A DNA stretch of 64,000 nucleotides. It comes from Escherichia coli (GTDB lineage Bacteria; Pseudomonadota; Gammaproteobacteria; Enterobacterales; Enterobacteriaceae). The notes beneath the pieces were generated by a model. It was not told the origin of the DNA. It was given only the letters and a program-made list of their open reading frames with translations, and did not search any database. Positions 3,840 to 38,904 of the stretch are shown one piece after another. Position numbers and translations under genes: made by a program. Position 1 is the first letter of the stretch. Each line of letters starts with the position of its first letter. The stretch is from the NCBI RefSeq assembly GCF_022846255.1, contig NZ_AP025682.1; one strand, 5' to 3'.

Positions 3840-4858
3840 TGAACCAACGTAATGCTTCAATGACTGTGATCGGTGCCGGCTCGTACGGCACCGCTCTTGC
3901 CATCACCCTGGCAAGAAATGGCCACGAGGTTGTCCTCTGGGGCCATGACCCTGAACATATCGCAACGCTTGAACGCGACCGCTGTAACGCCGCGTTTCTC
4001 CCCGATGTGCCTTTTCCCGATACGCTCCATCTTGAAAGCGATCTCGCCACTGCGCTGGCAGCCAGCCGTAATATTCTCGTCGTCGTACCCAGCCATGTCT
4101 TTGGTGAAGTGCTGCGCCAGATTAAACCGCTGATGCGTCCTGATGCGCGTCTGGTGTGGGCGACCAAAGGGCTGGAAGCAGAAACCGGACGTCTGTTACA
4201 GGACGTGGCGCGTGAGGCCTTAGGCGATCAAATTCCGCTGGCGGTTATCTCTGGCCCAACGTTTGCGAAAGAACTGGCGGCAGGTTTACCGACGGCCATT
4301 TCGCTGGCCTCGACGGACCAGACCTTTGCCGATGACCTCCAGCAATTGCTGCACTGCGGCAAAAGTTTCCGCGTTTACAGCAACCCGGATTTCATTGGCG
4401 TGCAGCTTGGCGGCGCGGTGAAAAACGTCATTGCCATTGGCGCGGGGATGTCTGACGGTATCGGTTTTGGCGCGAATGCGCGTACGGCGCTGATCACCCG
4501 TGGACTGGCTGAAATGTCGCGTCTTGGCGCGGCGCTGGGTGCCGATCCTGCCACCTTTATGGGCATGGCGGGGCTGGGCGATCTGGTGCTTACCTGTACC
4601 GACAACCAGTCGCGTAACCGCCGTTTTGGCATGATGCTCGGTCAGGGCATGGATGTACAAAGCGCGCAGGAAAAGATAGGTCAGGTGGTGGAAGGCTACC
4701 GCAATACGAAAGAAGTCCGCGAACTGGCGCATCGCTTCGGCGTTGAAATGCCAATAACCGAGGAAATTTATCAAGTATTATATTGCGGAAAAAACGCGCG
4801 CGAGGCAGCATTGACTTTACTAGGTCGTGCACGCAAGGACGAGCGCAGCAGCCACTAA
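3839..4858 (+). CDS. gpsA: NAD(P)H-dependent glycerol-3-phosphate dehydrogenase (339 aa)
   Basis: [36 protein letters not shown]...; the ATG overlaps the secB stop (ATGA-type coupling). Confidence 0.97.
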
Positions 4859-4937
4859 ACCCAGGGAACCTTTGTTACCACTATGACCCGGCCCGCGCAG
4901 AACGGGCCGGTCATTATCTCATCGTGTGGAGTAAGCA

Positions 4938-5759
4938 ATGTCGTGTGAAGAACTGGAAATTGTCTGGAACAATATTAAAGCTGAAGCCAGAACGCTGGCG
5001 GACTGTGAGCCAATGCTGGCCAGTTTTTACCACGCGACGCTACTCAAGCACGAAAACCTTGGCAGTGCACTGAGCTACATGCTGGCGAACAAGCTGTCAT
5101 CGCCCATTATGCCGGCTATTGCTATCCGTGAAGTGGTGGAAGAAGCCTACGCCGCCGACCCGGAAATGATCGCCTCTGCGGCCTGTGATATTCAGGCGGT
5201 GCGTACCCGTGACCCGGCGGTGGATAAATACTCAACCCCGTTGCTATACCTGAAGGGTTTTCATGCTTTGCAGGCGTATCGCATCGGTCACTGGTTGTGG
5301 AATCAGGGCCGTCGCGCGCTGGCTATTTTTCTACAAAACCAGGTCTCTGTAACGTTCCAGGTTGATATTCACCCGGCAGCAAAAATTGGTCGCGGTATCA
5401 TGCTCGACCACGCGACAGGCATCGTCGTTGGTGAAACGGCGGTGATTGAAAACGACGTGTCGATTCTGCAATCCGTTACCCTTGGCGGTACGGGTAAATC
5501 TGGCGGAGACCGTCACCCGAAAATTCGTGAAGGCGTGATGATTGGCGCAGGCGCGAAAATTCTCGGTAATATTGAAGTTGGGCGCGGCGCGAAGATTGGC
5601 GCAGGTTCCGTGGTGCTGCAACCGGTGCCGCCGCACACTACTGCCGCTGGCGTTCCGGCACGCATTGTCGGCAAGCCGGATAGCGATAAACCGTCAATGG
5701 ATATGGATCAGCATTTCAACGGCATTAACCATACGTTTGAGTATGGTGATGGGATCTGA
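4938..5759 (+). CDS. cysE: Serine O-acetyltransferase (273 aa)
   Basis: MSCEELEIVWNNIKAEARTLADCEPMLASFYHATLLKHENLGSALSYMLANKL... with hexapeptide repeats. Confidence 0.97.
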   Translation: MSCEELEIVWNNIKAEARTLADCEPMLASFYHATLLKHENLGSALSYMLANKLSSPIMPAIAIREVVEEAYAADPEMIASAACDIQAVRTRDPAVDKYSTPLLYLKGFHALQAYRIGHWLWNQGRRALAIFLQNQVSVTFQVDIHPAAKIGRGIMLDHATGIVVGETAVIENDVSILQSVTLGGTGKSGGDRHPKIREGVMIGAGAKILGNIEVGRGAKIGAGSVVLQPVPPHTTAAGVPARIVGKPDSDKPSMDMDQHFNGINHTFEYGDGI

Positions 5760-6359: not shown

Positions 6360-7550
6360 CTATGCCGCATTCCCTTTCGCCATCGGAGCTAGTGCCGCAG
6401 GCAATTCTTTATCCAGCCCTTGCACCAGCGAATCTTGCGTAATTTCGCTAATCGATTTCGCGCCAGTCAGCGTCATCGCCACTTTCATCTCTTTTTCGAT
6501 CAGATTTAGCAGGTTAGCTACACCCGCCTGGCCCGCTGTTGCCAGCGCATACAGGAAAGCACGACCCAGCAGTACGGTGTCGGCACCGAGCGCAATCATA
6601 CGCACGACATCAAGCCCGTTACGTATTCCGCTATCCGCCAGAATGGCGATATCACCTTTCACCGCATCTGCAATAGCGGGCAACGCACGAGCGGAAGAGA
6701 GTACACCGTCCAGCTGGCGGCCACCGTGGTTAGAAACCACAATCCCATCAGCACCAAAACGTACTGCATCGCGCGCATCTTCCGGATCGAGGATCCCTTT
6801 GATCACCATCGGGCCATCCCAGAAATCGCGGATCCACTCAAGGTCTTTCCATGAGATGGACGGATCGAAGTTATTCCCCAGCCAGCCGATGTAATCTTCC
6901 AGTCCGGTCGGTTTGCCGAGATAAGCTGAGATATTACCTAAATCATGCGGACGACCGTTCAGGCCCACATCCCACGCCCATTGCGGATGCGTCACCGCCT
7001 GCAAATAGCGGCGCATTGCCGCGTTCGGGCCGCTCATCCCAGAATGCGCATCACGATAACGCGCTCCCGGTGTTGGCATATCCACGGTGAAAACCAGTGT
7101 CGAACAACCCGCTGCTTTTGCTCGCTCCAGTGCGTTACGCATAAAGCCGCGATCGCGCAGCACATAAAGCTGGAACCACATCGGACGTTTGATAGCCGGA
7201 GCCACTTCTTCAATCGGGCAAACGGAAACCGTCGAGAGAGTAAACGGAATGCCATGCGCATCCGCTGCTTTGGCAGCCTGAACTTCGCCGCGTCGCGCAT
7301 ACATGCCACACAAACCTACCGGACCTAGCGCCACCGGCATCGACAATTTCTCATTAAACAGCGTCGTTTCCAGGCTTAAGTCAGACATGTTTTTCAGAAT
7401 ACGCTGGCGCAGCGCCACTTCTGACAAATCTTCCACGTTGCGGCGCAGCGTGTATTCAGAATATGCACCCCCATCCATATAGTGGAACAGGAACGGCGGC
7501 AGAATGCGTTGCGCTGCGGCGCGATAATCGCTGGCTGCGGAAATAATCAT
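6360..7550 (-). CDS. lldD: L-lactate dehydrogenase, FMN-dependent (396 aa)
   Basis: [38 protein letters not shown]...; last gene of lldPRD. Confidence 0.97.
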
Positions 7551-8323
7551 GCGTTTTTCTCCCTCGAATGCTCATTATGGTCACCAGGCAGGCGGGTAAT
7601 GCGTGCATGGCGAGCCTGATCTTCATCGAATCGTTTCATGGTGGTGTGAACAAAGCTAAGGTGCGCCATCATTGCTTTACGCGCCCCGTCAGCATCACCG
7701 GCAAAAATGGCGTCAATGACTGCCTGATGTTGTTCGGTCAGCTGTGAAAAAACCGGGGGTACCAGATACATCCGCTGGCGGCTATGCTTCACGGAGGATT
7801 GCAGGACATCGAAGAAACCGCGCATGGTTTGCAGCAGCACGATGTTATGTGAGGCTTCGGCAATCGCCAGATGAAAACGAACGTCCGCTTGTGAGGCGAG
7901 ATCCGGGTCTTCACTTAGCGTTGCTTCAAAGCAAAGCTGAATCTTTTCTTTTTCGCCAGGTGTGGCGCGCATTGCCGCATGCCACGCGGTGCTGGCTTCA
8001 ATGGCGTAGCGGGCTTCCAGAATATCGAAACTGTAATCCGGATCATCGGCCATCAGCGTTTTCAGCGGCTGGACGATGTTTTGCTCCGACCATGTGTCAT
8101 GACGCCAGCGAATAAACGTCCCGCCGCCACGTCGACTGAGCAGCACACCTTCGCTTACCAGTTTCGCCAGCGCCTCGCGCAGTGAATTTCTCGACACGCC
8201 GAGTTGCATCGCCAGTTGACGTTCAGCGGGCAACTTCATGCCCGCTTCCAGGTTTTTTTCATCAATCAGCGCCCGCACACGATCGGCAACCTCGTCTGAC
8301 AGGCGTCTGGGTAAAACAATCAT
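7547..8323 (-). CDS. lldR: GntR-family L-lactate regulator LldR (258 aa)
   Basis: [55 protein letters not shown]...; start set at the internal ATG for the known length; overlaps the lldP stop by 1 nt and the lldD start by 4 nt. Confidence 0.93.
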
Positions 8324-9978
8324 TAAGGAATCATCCACGTTAAGACATAGGCCTGAAGCGTGGTGATCACGCCCACCATACAGGTGAAGATCAGGCTGTG
8401 TTTGACAGTAAAGCGGAACAAATCAGACTCTTTGCCCACCAGGCCTACCGCCGCACAGGCGATAGCGATAGATTGCGGAGAGATCATTTTGCCGGTGACA
8501 CCACCGGTGGTGTTGGCAGCAACCAGCAACAGGTCAGAAACGCCAATTTGTTGTGCGGCGGTAGCCTGCAAAGCGGCAAACAAAGCATTAGATGACGTAT
8601 CCGACCCGGTCAGGAATACCCCAAGCCAGCCGAGGAACGGCGAGAAGAAGGTGAATGCATGACCGGTGTGCGCCAGTGCCAGCGCCAGTGTTGATGACAA
8701 ACCGGAATAGTTCGAGATAAAGGCGAACGCCAGCACCATACCGATGGAGTAGATAGGCAGAGCCAGTTCTTTCAGCGTGCTGCCGAAGGTGCTGATAGCG
8801 TCAGATGGTTTCATCTTCAGCCAGACAATCGAGAGCAGGGCAGCAAAAAGAATGGCGGTACCGGTGGCAGAGAACCAGTCAAACTTAAACACGGCGGCAT
8901 ACGCTGTCGCTTCGCTGACCACTGGCGGCATACGGGCAACCAGTTTATCGAGGTACGGCACCGGAATGTTGATCACCCACTCATACAGCGCACCGCCTGA
9001 AGCGAACAGGGCTTTAAACGGCGGGATACTCCACAGCGTTACGGTGGCGGTCAGGAACAGAAACGGTGTCCAGGCGCGCAGCACCTGACCTGCCGTGTAA
9101 CCTGTGTGAGCCAGCGTCATATCAACCTGTGACGCCCCCAAGTCACCGAAGCGGAATACGCGCACTGGTTGCCAGCGTTTGAGGAACAGCGTCAGGCAGA
9201 GCAGTGATACCAGCGAAGAGATAATGTCTGGCAGTTCCGGCCCAATGAAGTTAGAGCTGAGGTATTGAGCAATGGCAAACGAACCACCTGCAACCACGAC
9301 CGCAGGCCACGTCTCTTTGATACCGCGCCAACCGTCCATAATCGCCATGATCCAGAACAGCACGATAATGGTCATAAACGGCAGCTGACGCCCCACCATC
9401 TGACCAATCTCAAAGCTGTCGATGCCTGTTACCTGCCCGGCGACCAGAATCGGAATACCCATCGCGCCAAATGCCACTGGTGCGGTGTTAACAATCAGGC
9501 ACAGTCCGGCGGCGTAGAGTGGTTTAAAGCCCAGACCGACCAGCAATGCGGCGGTAATTGCTACCGGTGCGCCAAAGCCTGCGGCTCCTTCAAGGAAAGC
9601 GCCGAAACAGAAACCGACGATCAGCATTTGCAGGCGCTGGTCAGGGGTTATCGAAAGAATAGACGAGCGAATGATGTCAAACTGCCCGGTTTTCACCGAG
9701 ATCTTATAGACGAACACCGCTGCAATAATGATCCACGCGATGGGCCACAACCCGTAGAAGAAGCCATAAACCACCGAGGCCAGCGCGTTAGCGACCGGCA
9801 TTTTATAGAACAGCAAAGCCACGGCAAGGGCGATTGCCACCGTCCATGAGGCGGCGACGTATCCTTTCAGTTTGAGCTTAATCAGCGCAAAGAAGAAAAA
9901 CAGGATGGGAAGCGATGCTATCAGGCTGGAAAGCCAGATATTCCCGGCGGGATCGTAGTTTTGTTGCCAGAGATTCAT
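8323..9978 (-). CDS. lldP: L-lactate permease (551 aa)
   Basis: [40 protein letters not shown]...; multi-pass membrane protein; start chosen for the known length. Confidence 0.95.
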
Positions 9979-10176
9979 TGCAGGTCTCCTGCAGTCCACA
10001 CACGCCGTGTAATGAGTCTGTTGCTCATCTCCTTGTCACACGTTGTGTAAAAGTGGCACTGCCAATTGTGTTGTGTAGGGATAATGACAATGGATAGTTA
10101 ACTAAATGTTATGCATTAGCAACATTGATGTGAGTTTTAATTGGGGAATTGTGAACCAGAGGTCAGATAAGCGAAG

Positions 10177-10193
10177 AATTGGTAGGGCCAATT
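10177..10193. promoter_or_regulatory. Candidate LldR/PdhR-type operator in the lldP promoter region
   Basis: Inverted repeat aattggtagggccaatt (AATTGG-N5-CCAATT), resembling the FadR-subfamily GntR operator consensus AATTGGT-N3-ACCAATT; about 200 bp upstream of the lldP start. Confidence 0.5.
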
Positions 10194-10217
10194 CTGGGAG
10201 AGGGGTAATGAAGAAAA

Positions 10218-10243
10218 GGGCAATTCCCATCAGAGAATTGCCC
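10218..10243. promoter_or_regulatory. Second palindrome in the lldP upstream region (possible second operator)
   Basis: gggcaattc-N8-gaattgccc inverted repeat; function inferred from position only. Confidence 0.3.
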
Positions 10244-10269
10244 TCAGATTGTTGATCTGGTGCGCCTTA

Positions 10270-10362
10270 TCTTGCCGGATGCGGCGTGAACGCCTTATCC
10301 GGCCTACAGGGTAGTGCTGAATCACCCCGTAGGCCTGATAAGCGTAGCGCATCAGGCAATGT
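10270..10362. repeat. Pair of REP elements (BIME-like) between the adhesin 3' end and the lldP promoter
   Basis: gccggatgcggcgtgaacgccttatccggcctaca followed by an inverted copy, gtaggcctgataagcgtagcgcatcaggcaatg. Confidence 0.85.
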
Positions 10363-10389
10363 GGCGTTTACCCATTTGTTAATGGATCA

Positions 10390-27153: not shown

Positions 27154-28305
27154 ATGGCAGCTTCAACCTTTTTTATTCCTTCCGTGAATGTTATTGGTGC
27201 TGATTCATTGAATGATGCAATGAATATGATGGCAGATTATGGATTTACCCGTACCTTAATTGTCACCGACAACATGTTAACGAAATTGGGTATGGCGGGT
27301 GATGTGCAAAAAGCACTGGAAGAACGCAATATTTTTAGCGTTATTTATGATGGCACCCAACCTAACCCCACCACGGAAAACGTCGCTGCAGGTTTGAAAT
27401 TACTTAAAGAAAATAATTGCGATAGCGTGATTTCCTTAGGCGGTGGTTCTCCACACGACTGCGCAAAAGGTATTGCGCTGGTTGCAGCCAACGGCGGTGA
27501 CATCCGCGATTATGAAGGCGTTGACCGCTCTGCAAAACCGCAGCTGCCGATGATCGCCATCAACACCACGGCGGGTACGGCCTCTGAAATGACTCGTTTC
27601 TGCATCATCACTGACGAAGCGCGTCACATCAAAATGGCGATTGTGGATAAACATGTAACTCCGCTGCTTTCTGTCAATGACTCCTCTCTGATGATCGGTA
27701 TGCCGAAGTCACTGACCGCCGCAACGGGTATGGATGCCTTAACGTACGCTATCGAAGCGTATGTTTCTATTGCCGCCACGCCGATCACTGACGCTTGTGC
27801 ACTGAAAGCCGTGACCATGATTGCCGAAAACCTGCCGTTAGCCGTTGAAGATGGCAGCAATGCTAAAGCGCGTGAAGCAATGGCTTATGCCCAGTTCCTC
27901 GCCGGTATGGCGTTCAATAATGCTTCTCTGGGTTATGTTCATGCGATGGCGCACCAGCTGGGCGGTTTCTACAACCTGCCACACGGTGTATGTAACGCCG
28001 TTTTGCTGCCGCATGTTCAGGTATTCAACAGCAAAGTCGCCGCTGCACGTCTGCGTGATTGTGCCGCTGCAATGGGCGTGAACGTGACAGGTAAAAACGA
28101 CGCGGAAGGTGCTGAAGCCTGCATTAACGCCATCCGTGAACTGGCGAAGAAAGTGGATATCCCGGCAGGCCTACGCGACCTGAACGTGAAAGAAGAAGAT
28201 TTCGCGGTTCTGGCGACTAATGCCCTGAAAGATGCCTGCGGCTTTACTAACCCGATCCAGGCAACTCACGAAGAAATTGTGGCGATTTATCGCGCAGCGA
28301 TGTAA
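27154..28305 (+). CDS. yiaY: Iron-containing (group III) alcohol dehydrogenase YiaY (383 aa)
   Basis: [58 protein letters not shown]... Confidence 0.95.
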
Positions 28306-28320
28306 TCATCATTTCCACAA

Positions 28321-28348
28321 CGGCTGGCGAGTTGTCAGCCGCTTTTTC
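28321..28348 (+). terminator. Probable intrinsic terminator of yiaY
   Basis: cggctggcgagttgtcagccg hairpin followed by ctttttc. Confidence 0.55.
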
Positions 28349-28350
28349 AA

Positions 28351-28428
28351 CTATCTCAAAACTTGCTTTTTTTGAGATAGTTTCTCTTTCCTGCTATACA
28401 CTATCTCAATATTGCGCTTTTTTGAGAT
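28351..28428. promoter_or_regulatory. Two copies of a ~30-bp palindrome immediately upstream of the fic gene (candidate operators)
   Basis: ctatctcaaaacttgctttttttgagatag (28351-28380) and ctatctcaatattgcgcttttttgagata (28401-28428); each is the inverted repeat ctatctcaa-N11/12-ttgagata(g); the second ends 7 bp before the fic ATG. Confidence 0.5.
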
Positions 28429-28434
28429 AAGCAC

Positions 28435-29730
28435 ATGGCTATCAAATCACCTCCCGGACTTATTCCTTTATCACACTTATCGGGTGAGGAACTCCTGGCC
28501 CACCTGCGCTTTAACCGGGTTACCGATGAAAAAGGACGTTATCTGCCTTTTGATGAGTTGCAGTACCGCATCAAAAAAGGAGAAAACGTCGATGTGGCGT
28601 GGACGCTTACCCGTCTGGCGCGCAACGCGGCGATCCAACGAATTAATTATTGCAATGAAGCGGGTGAACAGGCCGGATTCAACATTACCCCGGTGATTGC
28701 AGAAGCGTGCGAGCTTGTCGACAAACGTGCTACCGCGCTGGCGCTGAAAGATCAGACTGAACGGTTACGCGGGGCCGGAGCCGAGTTAAGCCAGTTACGC
28801 CTGGAAGAGCCGATCACCAGCTCCCAGCTGGAAGGTGCGAATACTACAACGCTGGTGGCGAGAAAAATGCTGGAAACAGGGCGGTCGCCACGCACTGAAG
28901 ACGAGCATATGATTGCGGGAAATGCCCGGCTGATGGCGGAAATTCCGCACTTACTCGCAGAACCGCTGACACCTGCGCTTATTCGCCAGTTACATGCCAT
29001 TGGTATGGGTGGAATCAATGACGCGAAATATCGTCCGGGAGAATTTCGTGAAACAGATGATGTTGTGATCGCCGACTATGATGGCAATATAGTGCATCAA
29101 CCGCCCGCTGCGGCATTGTTACCGGAACGGCTGGAAAAAGTTTGCCAGTGGTTAAACAGCCATGAAGGGTATATTCATCCGTTGGTCCGTGCCTGCATTC
29201 TGCATTTTATGCTGGCCCATGAACATCCGTTTCGGGATGGCAACGGGCGCACCAGTCGGGCGCTGTTTTACTGGTATATGCTGAAATCGGGCTACGATGT
29301 CTTTAAATATATTTCCATCAGCCGTTTGCTTCATGCTGCACCGGTCAAATATGCCGCCAGCTACCAGTACACTGAATCAGATGGTATGGATCTGACTTAT
29401 TTCCTTGAATATCAGGCGGGTGTCATTAAACGTGCTCTGCAAAACTGGCAGCAGCATATCGATGAAATTACACAACGAAGCGCAAAACTCGATAGTGTGC
29501 TGTTTAGCTCTGGTGTGCTTAAACGCCTGAATCCGCGCCAGGTAACGCTCCTGAATGTGATGCTCGCCAATCCGGGGAAAGAGTACACAGTTGCTGAAAT
29601 TAGCGCGAGCCTGGGCGTCTCTGATAATACGGCTCGAGCTGATTTACGGACAATTGTTAAAGAAGGATTCGCGCAAGAGAAAAGAATTAATAACCAGCAA
29701 GCAGTGTACGTCGCACACTACCCGCTGTAG
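28435..29730 (+). CDS. Fic-domain protein (431 aa), class II (internal inhibitory motif), with C-terminal winged-helix-like domain
   Basis: Canonical Fic active-site motif [14 protein letters not shown] (HPFx[D/E]GNGRxxR); upstream SSQLEG matches the inhibitory-helix motif [S/T]xxxE[G/N]; C-terminal segment ...[29 protein letters not shown]... looks like a helix-turn-helix. Confidence 0.85.
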
Positions 29731-29837
29731 CTTTTGCCCGTAAATTCGTGATAGCCGTCGTAAAGCTGTTACCGGCTGGCGAAGATTTCGCCAGTCACGT
29801 CTACCCTTGTTATACCTCACACCGCAAGGAGACGATC

Positions 29838-31376
29838 ATGACCAATAATCCCCCTTCAGCACAGATTAAGCCCGGCGAGTATGGTTTCCCCCTCAAATTA
29901 AAAGCCCGCTACGACAACTTTATCGGTGGCGAATGGGTAGCGCCTGCCGATGGCGAGTATTACCAGAACCTGACGCCGGTGACCGGGCAGCTACTGTGCG
30001 AAGTGGCGTCTTCGGGCAAACGAGACATCGATCTGGCGCTGGATGCTGCGCATAAAGTGAAAGATAAATGGGCGCACACCTCGGTGCAGGATCGCGCGGC
30101 GATTCTGTTTAAGATTGCCGATCGAATGGAACAAAACCTTGAACTTTTAGCGACGGCAGAAACCTGGGATAACGGCAAACCCATTCGCGAAACCAGTGCT
30201 GCCGACGTGCCGCTGGCGATTGATCATTTTCGCTATTTCGCCTCGTGTATTCGGGCGCAGGAAGGTGGGATCAGTGAAGTGGATAGCGAAACCGTGGCCT
30301 ATCATTTCCATGAACCGTTAGGCGTGGTGGGGCAGATTATCCCGTGGAACTTCCCGCTGCTGATGGCGAGCTGGAAAATGGCCCCCGCGCTGGCGGCGGG
30401 CAACTGTGTGGTGCTGAAACCCGCACGTCTTACTCCGCTTTCTGTACTGCTGCTAATGGAAATCGTCGGTGATTTACTGCCGCCAGGGGTGGTGAACGTG
30501 GTCAATGGCGCAGGTGGGGAAATTGGCGAATATCTGGCGACCTCGAAACGCATCTCCAAAGTGGCGTTTACTGGCTCAACGGAAGTGGGCCAACAAATTA
30601 TGCAATACGCCACGCAAAACATTATTCCGGTGACGCTGGAGCTGGGCGGCAAATCGCCAAATATCTTCTTTGCTGATGTGATGGATGAAGAAGATGCCTT
30701 TTTCGATAAAGCGCTGGAAGGCTTTGCACTGTTTGCCTTTAACCAGGGCGAAGTTTGCACCTGTCCAAGCCGTGCTTTAGTGCAGGAGTCTATCTACGAA
30801 CGCTTTATGGAACGCGCTATCCGCCGTGTCGAAAGCATTCGCAGCGGTAACCCGCTCGACAGCGTGACGCAAATGGGCGCGCAGGTTTCTCACGGGCAAC
30901 TGGAAACCATCCTCAACTACATTGATATCGGTAAAAAAGAGGGCGCTGATGTGCTCACCGGCGGGCGACGCAAGCTGCTGGAAGGCGAACTGAAAGACGG
31001 CTACTACCTCGAACCGACGATTCTGTTTGGTCAGAACAATATGCGCGTGTTCCAGGAGGAGATTTTTGGCCCGGTGCTGGCGGTAACCACCTTCAAAACG
31101 ATAGAAGAAGCGCTGGAGCTGGCGAACGATACGCAATATGGCCTGGGCGCGGGCGTCTGGAGCCGCAACGGTAATCTGGCCTATAAGATGGGGCGCGGCA
31201 TTCAGGCTGGGCGCGTGTGGACCAACTGTTATCACGCTTACCCGGCACATGCGGCGTTTGGCGGCTACAAACAATCAGGCATTGGCCGCGAAACCCACAA
31301 AATGATGCTTGAGCATTACCAGCAAACCAAGTGCCTGCTGGTGAGCTACTCGGATAAACCGTTGGGGCTGTTCTGA
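29838..31376 (+). CDS. aldB: Aldehyde dehydrogenase B (512 aa)
   Basis: [51 protein letters not shown]...; the track ORF is extended upstream, start set at the ATG at 29838. Confidence 0.95.
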
Positions 31377-31387
31377 TGTGAAAGGCT

Positions 31388-31408
31388 GCCCGGCGTGTAT
31401 TGCCGGGC
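31388..31408. terminator. Hairpin between convergent aldB and sgbE (likely bidirectional terminator)
   Basis: gcccggc gtgtatt gccgggc, a perfect 7-bp stem, in the 46-bp spacer. Confidence 0.55.
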
Positions 31409-31422
31409 ACTATCAGGTATGG

Positions 31423-32118
31423 CTACTGCCCGTAATAGGCATTGGCCCCATGCTTACGCAGGTAGTGCTTATCCAGCAGTTCGTTTTGCATCGCAGGGAG
31501 CTGTGGCGCAAGCTGGCGCGAGAACAGACCCATATAGGCGCACTCTTCCAGTACCACGGCGTTATGCACCGCATCGGCGGCATTTTTTCCCCAGGCGAAC
31601 GGGCCGTGAGAATGCACCAGTACCGCCGGGATTTGTGCCGGGTTCAACCCACGCTCTTCGAAGGTTTTAATGATCACTTTGCCGGTCTGGTATTCATACT
31701 CGCCGTTGATCTCTTCTGCGGTCATCAGGCGCGTGCAGGGGATGGCTCCGTAAAAATAATCGGCGTGAGTAGTGCCCCAGGCGGGGAGATCAAGTCCGGC
31801 CTGCGACCAGATGGTGGCGTGGCGCGAGTGGGTATGCACTATGCCGCCAATCTCCGCAAAGCGACGGTAAAGCGCCAGATGCGTTGGCGTGTCGGAAGAG
31901 GGCTTTTTGCTGCCTTCCACCACCTTGCCGCTGGCTATCTCAACCACCACCATATCGTCGGCGGTCATTACCTCATACTCAACGCCGGAAGGCTTAATCA
32001 CCATCCATTGCCGCGTTTCGTCTATCGCGCTGACATTGCCCCAGGTGAACGTCACCAGATGATGAACGGGAAGCGCCAGGTTTGCCGCCAGCACGTCGGC
32101 TTTCAGTTGCTCTAACAT
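31423..32118 (-). CDS. sgbE: L-ribulose-5-phosphate 4-epimerase SgbE (231 aa)
   Basis: [80 protein letters not shown]... Confidence 0.95.
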
Positions 32119-37983: not shown

Positions 37984-38904
37984 TTAACGAGATTCATTCA
38001 GAGAGTGAATGCCGTTGCGTAATATTTCGATGCGATGGTGCACATCAGCCGTCGCATTTATTTCCAGTAGCTTGATCCCAGCAAAATGCAATGTTGACGA
38101 TTCTGCTACATTAAATAACTCGCGAACATGATCTGTGGTCATCAGGCTTTCTGCGCAGAATGGTGCAAACGGTGCGTGTAAATCCTGCCATTCGCCGTAT
38201 GCCCCGTTTAGCGTCGTACCAGAGAACATTAACGCGCCGAGTTTTCCGGCTTGTTTCGCCATTTGGGTGTGGGCCAGCGGCAGCGTTGTATTGCGCCCTT
38301 CAATGGCAGAGCGCGCCCAGTTGATACAGATGCTGATGTCATAATCGGTAATAACTTCCAGCACATTTTCTAAAGGCAAAAAGCCTTTTCGGGGGGAAGA
38401 AGATGTCATGGCGTCGCAGTGTTCCAGCACCAGCTTGCACGGCCAGTCCCAACTGGCGATTTCTTTCAATGAGTGGGCAAAAGCGTCCGTCGCCTGCATA
38501 ACATTAGGATTCGTTGCTAACGGTGCAGCCTGGAGCTCCAGTGCGAGCACTTTATTAGCCTGCAATGCGTTGATTTTATTGAACAGGTGGCGATAGTACG
38601 CCACGCAGGCCTGGCGCTGTTCTTCATCACTGGAGGCGAGACCAAACCCGCTGTTTTCGCTGCGGCGACGCATGGTTTCCATCACTGCGGTGACGACAAA
38701 TTTCCAGCTCTCTGGCGTATGACGGAGTAACCATTGATCGCCCAGCGGGTGAAAATTTTCCAGGCAAGGTTGTTCCAGCCCCAAAATGTCTGGAGTCTCA
38801 GATAATTGTCGCCAGAAATCCTTCTCTTCCTCTTCACTTCTTTGGTGAAAAGAAGGTGCACAGGGATACGCGCCGATAATATAACCGGCATTATTCGTTT
38901 TCAT
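37984..38904 (-). CDS. Uncharacterised 306-aa protein inside the yiaK-sgbE operon, between yiaL and yiaM; no confident family assignment
   Basis: Uninterrupted ORF starting [60 protein letters not shown]... with GGAG 8 nt upstream of the ATG; 22 bp downstream of yiaL, same strand; no signal peptide or transmembrane segment evident; not part of the K-12 operon as I recall it. Confidence 0.75.

Follow-up and report, generated by a model that had tools for sequence, protein, structure and literature searches.

A class II Fic protein with a winged helix-turn-helix and a conserved candidate dual operator, encoded between yiaY and aldB in Escherichia coli

We analyzed a 64-kb stretch of an Escherichia coli chromosome (the window; 64,000 nucleotides) in which a gene for a Fic-domain protein, here called fic, lies between yiaY and aldB. 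Its open reading frame (ORF) occupies positions 28435..29730 of the plus strand, runs from ATG to TAG, and encodes 431 amino acids (aa). The RefSeq annotation of an identical genome places the gene at the same coordinates and calls its product "Fic family protein" (WP_000985737.1), while the annotation of E. coli O157:H7 Sakai has it as "hypothetical protein." A literature search on the yiaY–aldB fic gene found no paper on it, and papers on the related protein SoFic and on phylogroups contained nothing on the locus. The fic stop codon is followed by 107 bp before the aldB start, a gap in which the only small ORFs are ones that overlap the coding sequence. The features of the gene and its upstream region are as follows.

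28321..28347, plus strand: intrinsic terminator of yiaY, a GC stem with a T run found by terminator scan and identical in K-12; it forms the left edge of the fic unit.
28349..28382, no strand: candidate distal operator formed by a perfect inverted repeat of 13 nt, AACTATCTCAAAA-N8-TTTTGAGATAGTT, with the core TATCTCAA-N12-TTGAGATA at 28352-28379 (repeat search).
28372..28400, plus strand: putative sigma-70 promoter read from the sequence, TTGAGA at 28372-28377, a 17-nt spacer, and TATACA at 28395-28400.
28400..28431, no strand: candidate proximal operator ACTATCTCAA-N12-TTGAGATAAG, core at 28402-28429 (inverted and direct repeat search).
28435..29730, plus strand: fic coding sequence, 431 aa, class II Fic protein with a winged helix-turn-helix (wHTH).
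28435..28689, plus strand: family-specific N-terminal domain, residues 1 to ~85, with invariant P7, Y36, R45, W56, and R63; not in SoFic, CccR, or CbFic2.
28690..28815, plus strand: helices 86-127, the counterpart of the N-terminal dimerization helix of SoFic and CbFic2, running into the inhibitory motif (profile alignment and secondary structure).
28819..28836, plus strand: inhibitory motif S129-S-Q-L-E133-G134, invariant and aligned with SARIEG of CccR.
28963..29277, plus strand: Fic core domain PF02661, residues 177-281 (Pfam).
29224..29259, plus strand: catalytic Fic motif, H264 to R275 (motif search; invariant residues).
29512..29727, plus strand: C-terminal wHTH, residues 360-431 (AlphaFold2 model, fold alignment, and HTH profiles).
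29620-29661, plus strand: recognition helix from S396-D-N-T-A-R, followed by a β-hairpin wing at residues 413-427.
29725..29740, no strand: right end of the segment absent from K-12-type genomes, window CTGTAGCTTTTGCCCG against K-12 CTGTAACCCTTGCCCG.

An earlier note on this DNA, made from the letters alone, had read the gene as encoding a Fic domain with a canonical active site, a class II inhibitory motif, and a helix-turn-helix (HTH)-like segment at the C terminus, and all of this was borne out. The hidden Markov model search that the note had proposed matched Pfam Fic PF02661 to residues 177-281 (E=1.7e-19) and gave weak matches to HTH models at 360-415; the Fic domain was likewise matched in all 22 homologues (22/22) of an alignment spanning 40-76% identity. 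The canonical motif HxFxDGNGRxxR lies at H264-R275, and SSQLEG at residues 129-134 places its glutamate, E133, 131 residues before H264 in the same chain. The (S/T)xxxE(G/N) motif that marks class II in the classification of Engel et al. (2012) is thereby present N-terminal to the Fic core in the same polypeptide. Both motifs are invariant in the 22-sequence alignment, as are H264, P265, F266, D268, G269, N270, G271, R272, and R275 individually and the residues N398, T399, and A400 of the HTH. E133 is predicted to be the glutamate responsible for inhibition and deAMPylation, and by analogy with characterized Fic enzymes, nucleotidyl transfer of AMP or another nucleoside monophosphate (NMP) would be expected to proceed via H264.

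The AlphaFold2 model (predicted local distance difference test [pLDDT] 87, predicted template modeling score 0.82) gives wHTH secondary structure across residues 367-427. Fold alignment with Foldseek and family-level profile matches agree with this assignment, HTH_DeoR matching 9/22 family members and SoFic-like_C 3/22 (E<=1e-3). At the other end of the chain, the N-terminal domain of ~85 residues was modeled confidently on its own (pLDDT 90), and no fold match for it was found. It occurs in just 272 of 1.84 billion representative proteins, always at the N terminus, the full-length ones measuring 420-530 aa. In all, we found ~2150 homologues of fic, of which the close family (430-460 aa) can be aligned end to end. 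No full-length homologue was found in phage genomes, whose copies are limited to residues ~123-428, the SoFic-like part. By sequence and predicted structure, the fic product is a class II Fic protein with a C-terminal wHTH and an additional N-terminal domain.

Comparison with solved structures placed this protein among the Fic–wHTH enzymes. The top Foldseek matches were CbFic2 (8cil), SoFic (3zcn/3eqx/3zec, with TM scores of 0.63-0.69 on the target), Dde_2494 (4rgl), a Mycobacterium marinum Fic protein (7cb8), and CccR (7xux). CbFic2 of Coxiella burnetii (CBU_0822) is the best match by both profile and fold, and the family profile aligns with it continuously through Fic and wHTH (E=5e-21). CbFic2 differs in being 380 aa long without the N-terminal domain, in its identity of about 20%, in binding DNA without a defined operator, and in its target, host histone H3. 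It is a bifunctional AMPylase/deAMPylase switched by DNA-induced dimerization, and by analogy, it offers a plausible model for a coupling between operator binding and enzyme state in E. coli fic.

SoFic of Shewanella oneidensis (SO_4266/MloA; 3eqx, 3zcn, 3zec, 9tc4) shares the class II arrangement with an inhibitory glutamate about 125-131 residues before the histidine, a dimerization helix that runs into the inhibitory helix, the canonical Fic motif, and the C-terminal wHTH. The PADLOC SoFic model PDLC03963 matches nearly full length (148 bits, E=1.1e-43, positions 30-351 of 361; the next model scores 39 bits), and SoFic binds its own promoter as a dimer. The profile alignment begins at SoFic residue 41-50, which corresponds to fic residues ~99-104, and an N-terminal dimer helix has been described in the SoFic and EcSofic papers (bioRxiv 10.64898/2026.07.09.737422; PMC12249575). 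In contrast to these likenesses, the identity to SoFic is only about 17-18%, the N terminus of E. coli fic is longer by about 60-85 residues, which make up a conserved domain of their own, and the known target of SoFic is switch I of EF-Tu. The glutamate and histidine are E73/H198 in SoFic, E70/H194 in EcSofic, and E66/H205 in CbFic2, against E133/H264 here. Judged by sequence and model, fic has SoFic architecture without SoFic orthology.

CccR of Yersinia pseudotuberculosis is also a Fic–wHTH protein, and its SARIEG aligns with SSQLEG; the profile match to its chain (7xux) is 60 bits and covers only the inhibitory motif and the Fic core. CccR lacks the extra N-terminal domain, and it is a type VI secretion system (T6SS) effector that AMPylates FtsZ, whereas nothing points to secretion of the E. 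coli protein. A second E. coli class II Fic protein with a C-terminal domain, EcSofic of strain H397 (PMC12249575; probably 9vjc), is toxic on expression, and its toxicity needs dimerization and the C-terminal domain. It is nevertheless a different and distant protein, with a chain of 358 residues and a 47-aa downstream antitoxin, AS1, for which there is no counterpart in the fic–aldB gap. The class I Fic toxin–antitoxin (TA) pairs VbhT/VbhA and FicT/FicA, along with Doc/Phd, share the Fido fold, and their toxins arrest growth by modifying an essential target; their inhibitory helix comes from a separate antitoxin gene, whereas that of E. coli fic lies in the same chain with no conserved partner. 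Scores against the corresponding NCBIfam models were low (VbhT 15 bits against 800; Doc 16 against 38.7).

No partner gene emerged from the surroundings either, as the earlier note had stated. A small antitoxin like AS1 was sought in the 107 bp that separate fic from aldB, where none fits. A small ORF conserved downstream of fic was sought in 80 homologue loci and not found, and no neighboring gene is conserved across genera. With no conserved neighbor and no room for an antitoxin, members of the family behave as genes that act on their own. The note's further claim, that autoinhibition takes the place of a separate antitoxin, stands in part. The motif does lie in the same chain, and there is no space for an antitoxin gene, but class II membership alone does not exclude one, as EcSofic with its AS1 illustrates (PMC12249575).

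The main new point of the analysis lies upstream of the gene. The stretch from the yiaY terminator to the fic ATG contains two palindromes 50 bp apart, each with 8-bp arms and a 12-bp gap, such that the half-sites are 20 bp apart center to center. The pattern has 2 matches in the window against 0 expected, and both are at the fic promoter. The −35-like TTGAGA coincides with the right half of the distal operator, and the proximal operator reaches with its right half-site to 5 nt from the ATG, overlapping the likely ribosome-binding site. We infer the TTGAGA-17-TATACA promoter from the sequence, and the proximal right half-site probably doubles as the ribosome-binding site. In almost every lineage, as in the window (region 28422-28437), no more than 0-10 nt separate the end of this half-site, TTGAGATA, from the start codon, and in two homologue loci, the ATG itself overlaps it (TTGAGATATG).

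To follow the palindromes across the family, we surveyed 80 homologue loci, one genome per species, in the 260 nt from −220 to +40 around the start codon. Exact CTCAA-N10-14-TTGAG occurs there in 40/80 loci; elsewhere in the homologue flanks there were 9 matches in 856 kb, or 0.0027 expected per 260-nt interval. The operator ranges from Enterobacterales to cyanobacteria, and the spacer is 12 nt in 49/56 sites. Most proximal copies begin 22-32 nt ahead of the start codon, and most distal copies 75-80 nt ahead of it. In 15 loci, including those of Cellvibrio, Ningiella, Glaciecola, Marinomonas, and a Thiothrix metagenome-assembled genome, two operators lie 48-52 bp apart, and the locus of the cyanobacterium Leptolyngbya has a second, slightly degenerate copy upstream. 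A TATA-like hexamer just before the proximal operator recurs in the other two-operator loci, with the right half of the distal operator (TTGAGA) in the place expected of a −35 box. Half-site variants track variants of the recognition helix, although related loci do not count as independent cases: CSYNTA pairs with ATCTCAA, CAYNTAA with ATTTCAA, VSENTARD with CACCTCAA, and I[AS][AE]NTARK with TAACTCAA and a 10-nt spacer.

The relatives offer precedents for such sites. CccR represses its own promoter via an inverted repeat (PMC9755527), and dimeric SoFic binds to the 100 bp that precede its gene (bioRxiv 10.64898/2026.07.09.737422). Given these precedents and the conserved operator, autorepression by a dimer is the best reading of the sequence, in which a Fic dimer would repress its own promoter through the two candidate operators. 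The geometry is compatible with that of CccR, whose repeat lies near −35/−10: the 20-bp half-site distance in E. coli would correspond to ~68 Å, compared with 70 Å between the reading heads of the CccR dimer (PMC9755527). The layouts differ in that CccR has a single site with 10-bp arms 26 bp apart, whereas fic has 8-bp arms 12 bp apart, twice, with 50 bp between.

One further site drew our attention. In Alcanivorax quisquiliarum (locus 4809-5245), 1.2 kb upstream of the fic homologue, a 112-aa HigA-like HTH ORF is preceded at ~90 bp by a perfect fic-type operator, TTCATCTCAAAAAATTGGATTTTTGAGATGAG. This extra operator could mark a second regulated gene or a relic promoter.

We then turned to the history of the locus. 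By megablast, the full fic gene is present in 1572/5426 complete E. coli genomes (about 29%), single-copy and chromosomal in every case, and absent from the remaining 71%. Carriers include O25b:H4-ST131, UTI89, Nissle 1917, 83972, O157:H7 Sakai, Xuzhou21, O55:H7, and CE10, and noncarriers include K-12, one O111:H8 strain, and one O6:H16 strain. For these strains, the pattern would correspond to presence in phylogroups B2, E, and F with absence from A and B1. The earlier note had described K-12 as lacking the gene, correctly: in W3110, only 164 bp separate yiaY from aldB, with no gene in between.

The note had also described the gene as inserted at this position, and here the evidence points the other way. 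Escherichia albertii has a fic gene of 96% amino acid identity directly upstream of the same aldB leader. Between the two species, fic shows a synonymous divergence (dS) of 0.30 and a ratio of nonsynonymous to synonymous divergence (dN/dS) of 0.066, while aldB shows dS 0.35 and dN/dS 0.02. The resemblance of the fic dS to that of aldB, together with the position in E. albertii, argues for vertical inheritance here since before the split of E. coli and E. albertii, and the dN/dS of 0.066 indicates purifying selection on fic. Moreover, the K-12-type empty site, which reads ...CAACTATCTC|TGTAACCC..., retains the left operator half-site ACTATCTC. The fic-less E. coli strain N3 (NZ_CP031609.1, locus 505-640) keeps the complete distal operator AACTATCTCAAAATTTGCGATTTTTGAGATAGTT as an orphan without its regulator, followed by a further half-site, AGTTATCTC, before the same TGTAA junction. 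Since operator pieces are kept in genomes without fic, the K-12 empty site is best read as a deletion scar. By these sequence comparisons, fic is ancestral at yiaY–aldB in the lineage of E. coli and E. albertii, and the branch to which K-12 belongs has lost it by deletion. We rejected insertion at yiaY–aldB, which is contradicted by the operator scars and by the synteny and dS in E. albertii.

Homologues in other genera occupy mixed surroundings. The Salmonella homologue lies in an integrative and conjugative element (ICE), that of Klebsiella in a satellite resembling P4 or a phage-inducible chromosomal island, and that of Photorhabdus adjoins ParE/Phd and HicAB; others are on plasmids of Klebsiella, Aeromonas, and Vibrio, and the Endozoicomonas homologue is in an island rich in insertion sequences (ISs). 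The Xenorhabdus homologue (locus 7001-10216) is near mutS and a gene for an rpoS-like sigma factor, beside a PRiA4_ORF3-like gene. In Pseudomonas, the chromosomal position of the homologue is syntenic across about 21 species. At some of these loci we also noted other genes: in Endozoicomonas (locus 10727-13728), a 988-aa protein with a Pfam Death-domain match is encoded 2.3 kb downstream of the fic homologue; the Xenorhabdus locus has a second, shorter Fic–HTH gene (336 aa) on the opposite strand; and the Rahnella homologue has a gene for Hcp 6 kb away. The P. syringae homologue adjoins an iron-type alcohol dehydrogenase gene (locus 8466-9614), and E. coli fic follows another, yiaY (window 27154-28305). 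This shared neighbor is probably a coincidence, as its orientation differs.

Taken as a whole, we read fic with moderate confidence as a single-gene, self-regulated class II Fic enzyme at an ancestral locus, most likely with a toxin-like or abortive-infection role. In the mechanism that we propose, a Fic dimer would bind the two palindromic operators over the −35 region, transcription start, and ribosome-binding site of its own gene, repress fic transcription, and so keep the enzyme scarce. The enzyme would move AMP or another NMP from a nucleotide triphosphate to a target in the cell, at a Ser, Thr, or Tyr residue, by analogy with SoFic, EcSofic, CccR, and CbFic2. With E133 in place, removal of the modification or autoinhibition would be the default, and a shift in oligomeric or DNA-bound state could tip the balance to net modification and growth arrest. 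AMPylation by SoFic and EcSofic requires dimerization (PMC12249575 for EcSofic), and the DNA-induced dimer of CbFic2 is a deAMPylase. The weakest step is the role itself, as a toxin-like or abortive-infection module of the SoFic type. What favors this role is the mix of mobile and housekeeping contexts, the match to the SoFic profile, and the defense phenotype of SoFic; the SoFic family has been reported as a single-gene antiphage system (Millman et al. 2022), the phage assays having been made on relatives distant from E. coli fic. A toxin-like or antiphage action of E. coli fic is suggested by the PADLOC SoFic match and by the homologues on mobile elements.

The same elements also admit a more integrated and decidedly speculative scheme, a one-protein toxin/immunity switch. 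Binding to its own two operators would both stop transcription and hold a harmless deAMPylating dimer, and loss or titration of the DNA contact or a signal through the N-terminal domain (phage infection, for example) would free an AMPylating, cell-arresting form. We regard this scheme as doubtful.

Several results weigh against the proposed toxin-like, self-regulated enzyme. In the E. coli protein, pLDDT falls below 50 precisely at residues 132-135, around E133, which bears on the placement of this glutamate in the ATP site. Identity to the solved relatives is about 17-20%; the NCBIfam SoFic equivalog NF046030 scores 40.3 bits against a cutoff of 550, which excludes orthology to SoFic; and the probable EcSofic chain 9vjc was matched only distantly (phmmer E=8.6e-8). 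In the window, fic is flanked by core metabolic genes with no defense island around it, and the homologues of Pseudescherichia, P. syringae, and Rahnella also have housekeeping flanks. The hexamers of the proposed promoter are weak, and a strict sigma-70 consensus scan did not call this promoter, whose −10 element has no T at position 6. Pseudomonas fluorescens-group homologues (six loci, 170 nt upstream; helix CSYNTASA) have no N12 palindrome, showing instead the related half-sites ATTTCAGA..TGATATTGAGTC and ACTCAA-N19-TTGAGAC in another arrangement. The palindromes could fold as RNA, the 96-nt leader giving two hairpins at −25.3 kcal/mol (z = −5.3). Finally, a literature search found no published biochemical or genetic work on this fic subfamily.

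The most substantial alternative concerns function. A housekeeping or stress regulator, in the form of a reversible AMPylase/deAMPylase that tunes a core protein in particular growth conditions at a level set by autorepression, is a serious rival to a toxin or defense role, and we consider it possible, if on balance unlikely. Vertical inheritance at a core locus that predates the separation of E. coli from E. albertii and strong purifying selection in E. coli fit such a regulator at least as well as a defense gene. It is also favored by the synteny in Pseudomonas, by the housekeeping neighbors in E. coli, Pseudescherichia, P. syringae, and Rahnella, and by SoFic, a constitutive deAMPylase and reversible modifier of EF-Tu. 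It is harder to reconcile with the dispensability of fic, which most complete E. coli genomes lack, with homologues that sit on ICEs, satellites, and plasmids and among TA modules, and with a best family-level match to the PADLOC SoFic defense model. The protein could also be primarily a transcription factor, its wHTH running a regulon and its Fic domain serving only as a ligand or nucleotide sensor. The deep conservation of operator and recognition helix would fit, as would the deposition of 3eqx as a "Fic domain containing transcriptional regulator," the influence of CccR on other genes, and the extra operator in Alcanivorax. Yet the catalytic residues and the inhibitory glutamate are all invariant, the operator is confined to the fic promoter within the 64-kb window, and the 856 kb of homologue flanks contain one convincing extra site; we therefore hold this unlikely. 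That fic encodes a CccR-type interbacterial toxin delivered into competitors by a T6SS is scarcely credible. The Fic–wHTH architecture and putative autoregulatory palindrome do recall CccR, and the Hcp gene near the Rahnella homologue could be taken as a hint of such a system, but the annotation of the window shows no T6SS genes, neither T6SS nor immunity genes accompany E. coli fic or most homologues, and the match to 7xux stops short of the wHTH.

Two further alternatives concern the upstream region and the origin of the gene. If the palindromes were RNA hairpins, acting as terminator, attenuator, or sequestered ribosome-binding site, rather than DNA operators, the stability of the leader fold would be explained, as would the appearance of the distal palindrome as terminator-like in the terminator scan. 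Symmetrical changes on the two arms would be produced by RNA pairing as well; we did not use arm-to-arm covariation as evidence, since a symmetric operator would show the same covariation as an RNA hairpin. What makes this improbable is that conservation from Enterobacterales to cyanobacteria extends to the half-site sequence itself and not only to its pairing, with the 12-nt spacer and the 50-bp operator period fixed in units of helical turns. In addition, many distal sites have the form TATCTCAA...TTGAGACA, which as RNA would contain an A·C mismatch, the −10-like element comes only after the distal site, a scan of 28200-29900 matched no known Rfam family, and the relatives bind their own promoter DNA. 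As for origin, fic could in principle be a recently acquired mobile cassette put into an originally empty yiaY–aldB spacer, in line with its absence from K-12 and most E. coli and with the mobile elements that carry the family in other genera. We judge this very unlikely, for the empty sites themselves hold operator sequence (a half-site in K-12; a whole operator and a half-site in N3) and the E. albertii gene is in the same place with a dS equal to that of aldB. The GC content of fic also resembles that of its neighbors, and no integrase, IS, or flanking direct repeats were found around it. The preferred reading remains the autorepressed, toxin-like Fic enzyme at an ancestral locus.

Elsewhere in the window, a few further features came to light. 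Directly after aldB (interval 31376-31423) comes an sgbE/araD-like gene for L-ribulose-5-phosphate 4-epimerase (31423-32118, minus strand); K-12 W3110 carries a small hypothetical gene with yiaW, yiaV, and yiaU there, a block that the window strain is without. Between lldP and yibL (region 9681-15423), the annotation of the identical genome has a 5-kb gene for a YadA-like trimeric autotransporter (9681-14696, minus strand), together with a DUF3251 gene (14740-15423, minus strand). A DUF4862 family gene (37984-38904, minus strand) lies within the yiaK–yiaS sugar operon between yiaM and yiaL; it is not known to be part of that operon in K-12.

Roles for Fic–wHTH proteins are recent, among them EF-Tu modification by SoFic, FtsZ by CccR, histone H3 by CbFic2, and phage defense by SoFic. 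E. coli fic is an uncharacterized class II member of this group, set apart by its N-terminal domain and conserved dual operator. It is not a new kind of system, and the finding is useful but would be unsurprising to a specialist in Fic proteins or phage defense; in an ordinary outcome, it would be one more autoregulated Fic toxin or defense gene. Nonetheless, about 29% of complete E. coli genomes carry a member of the subfamily, those of ST131, UTI89, Nissle 1917, and O157:H7 among them. As the half-site is defined to 8 bp, the spacer is fixed at 12 bp, and the layout of two operators is shared across phyla, simple constructs would suffice to test DNA binding, autorepression, and any link to enzyme state directly, and K-12 is a natural null background that bears the deletion scar. 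If the switch scheme were true, the conserved operator would be part of the enzyme's control circuit, beyond its place as a promoter element.

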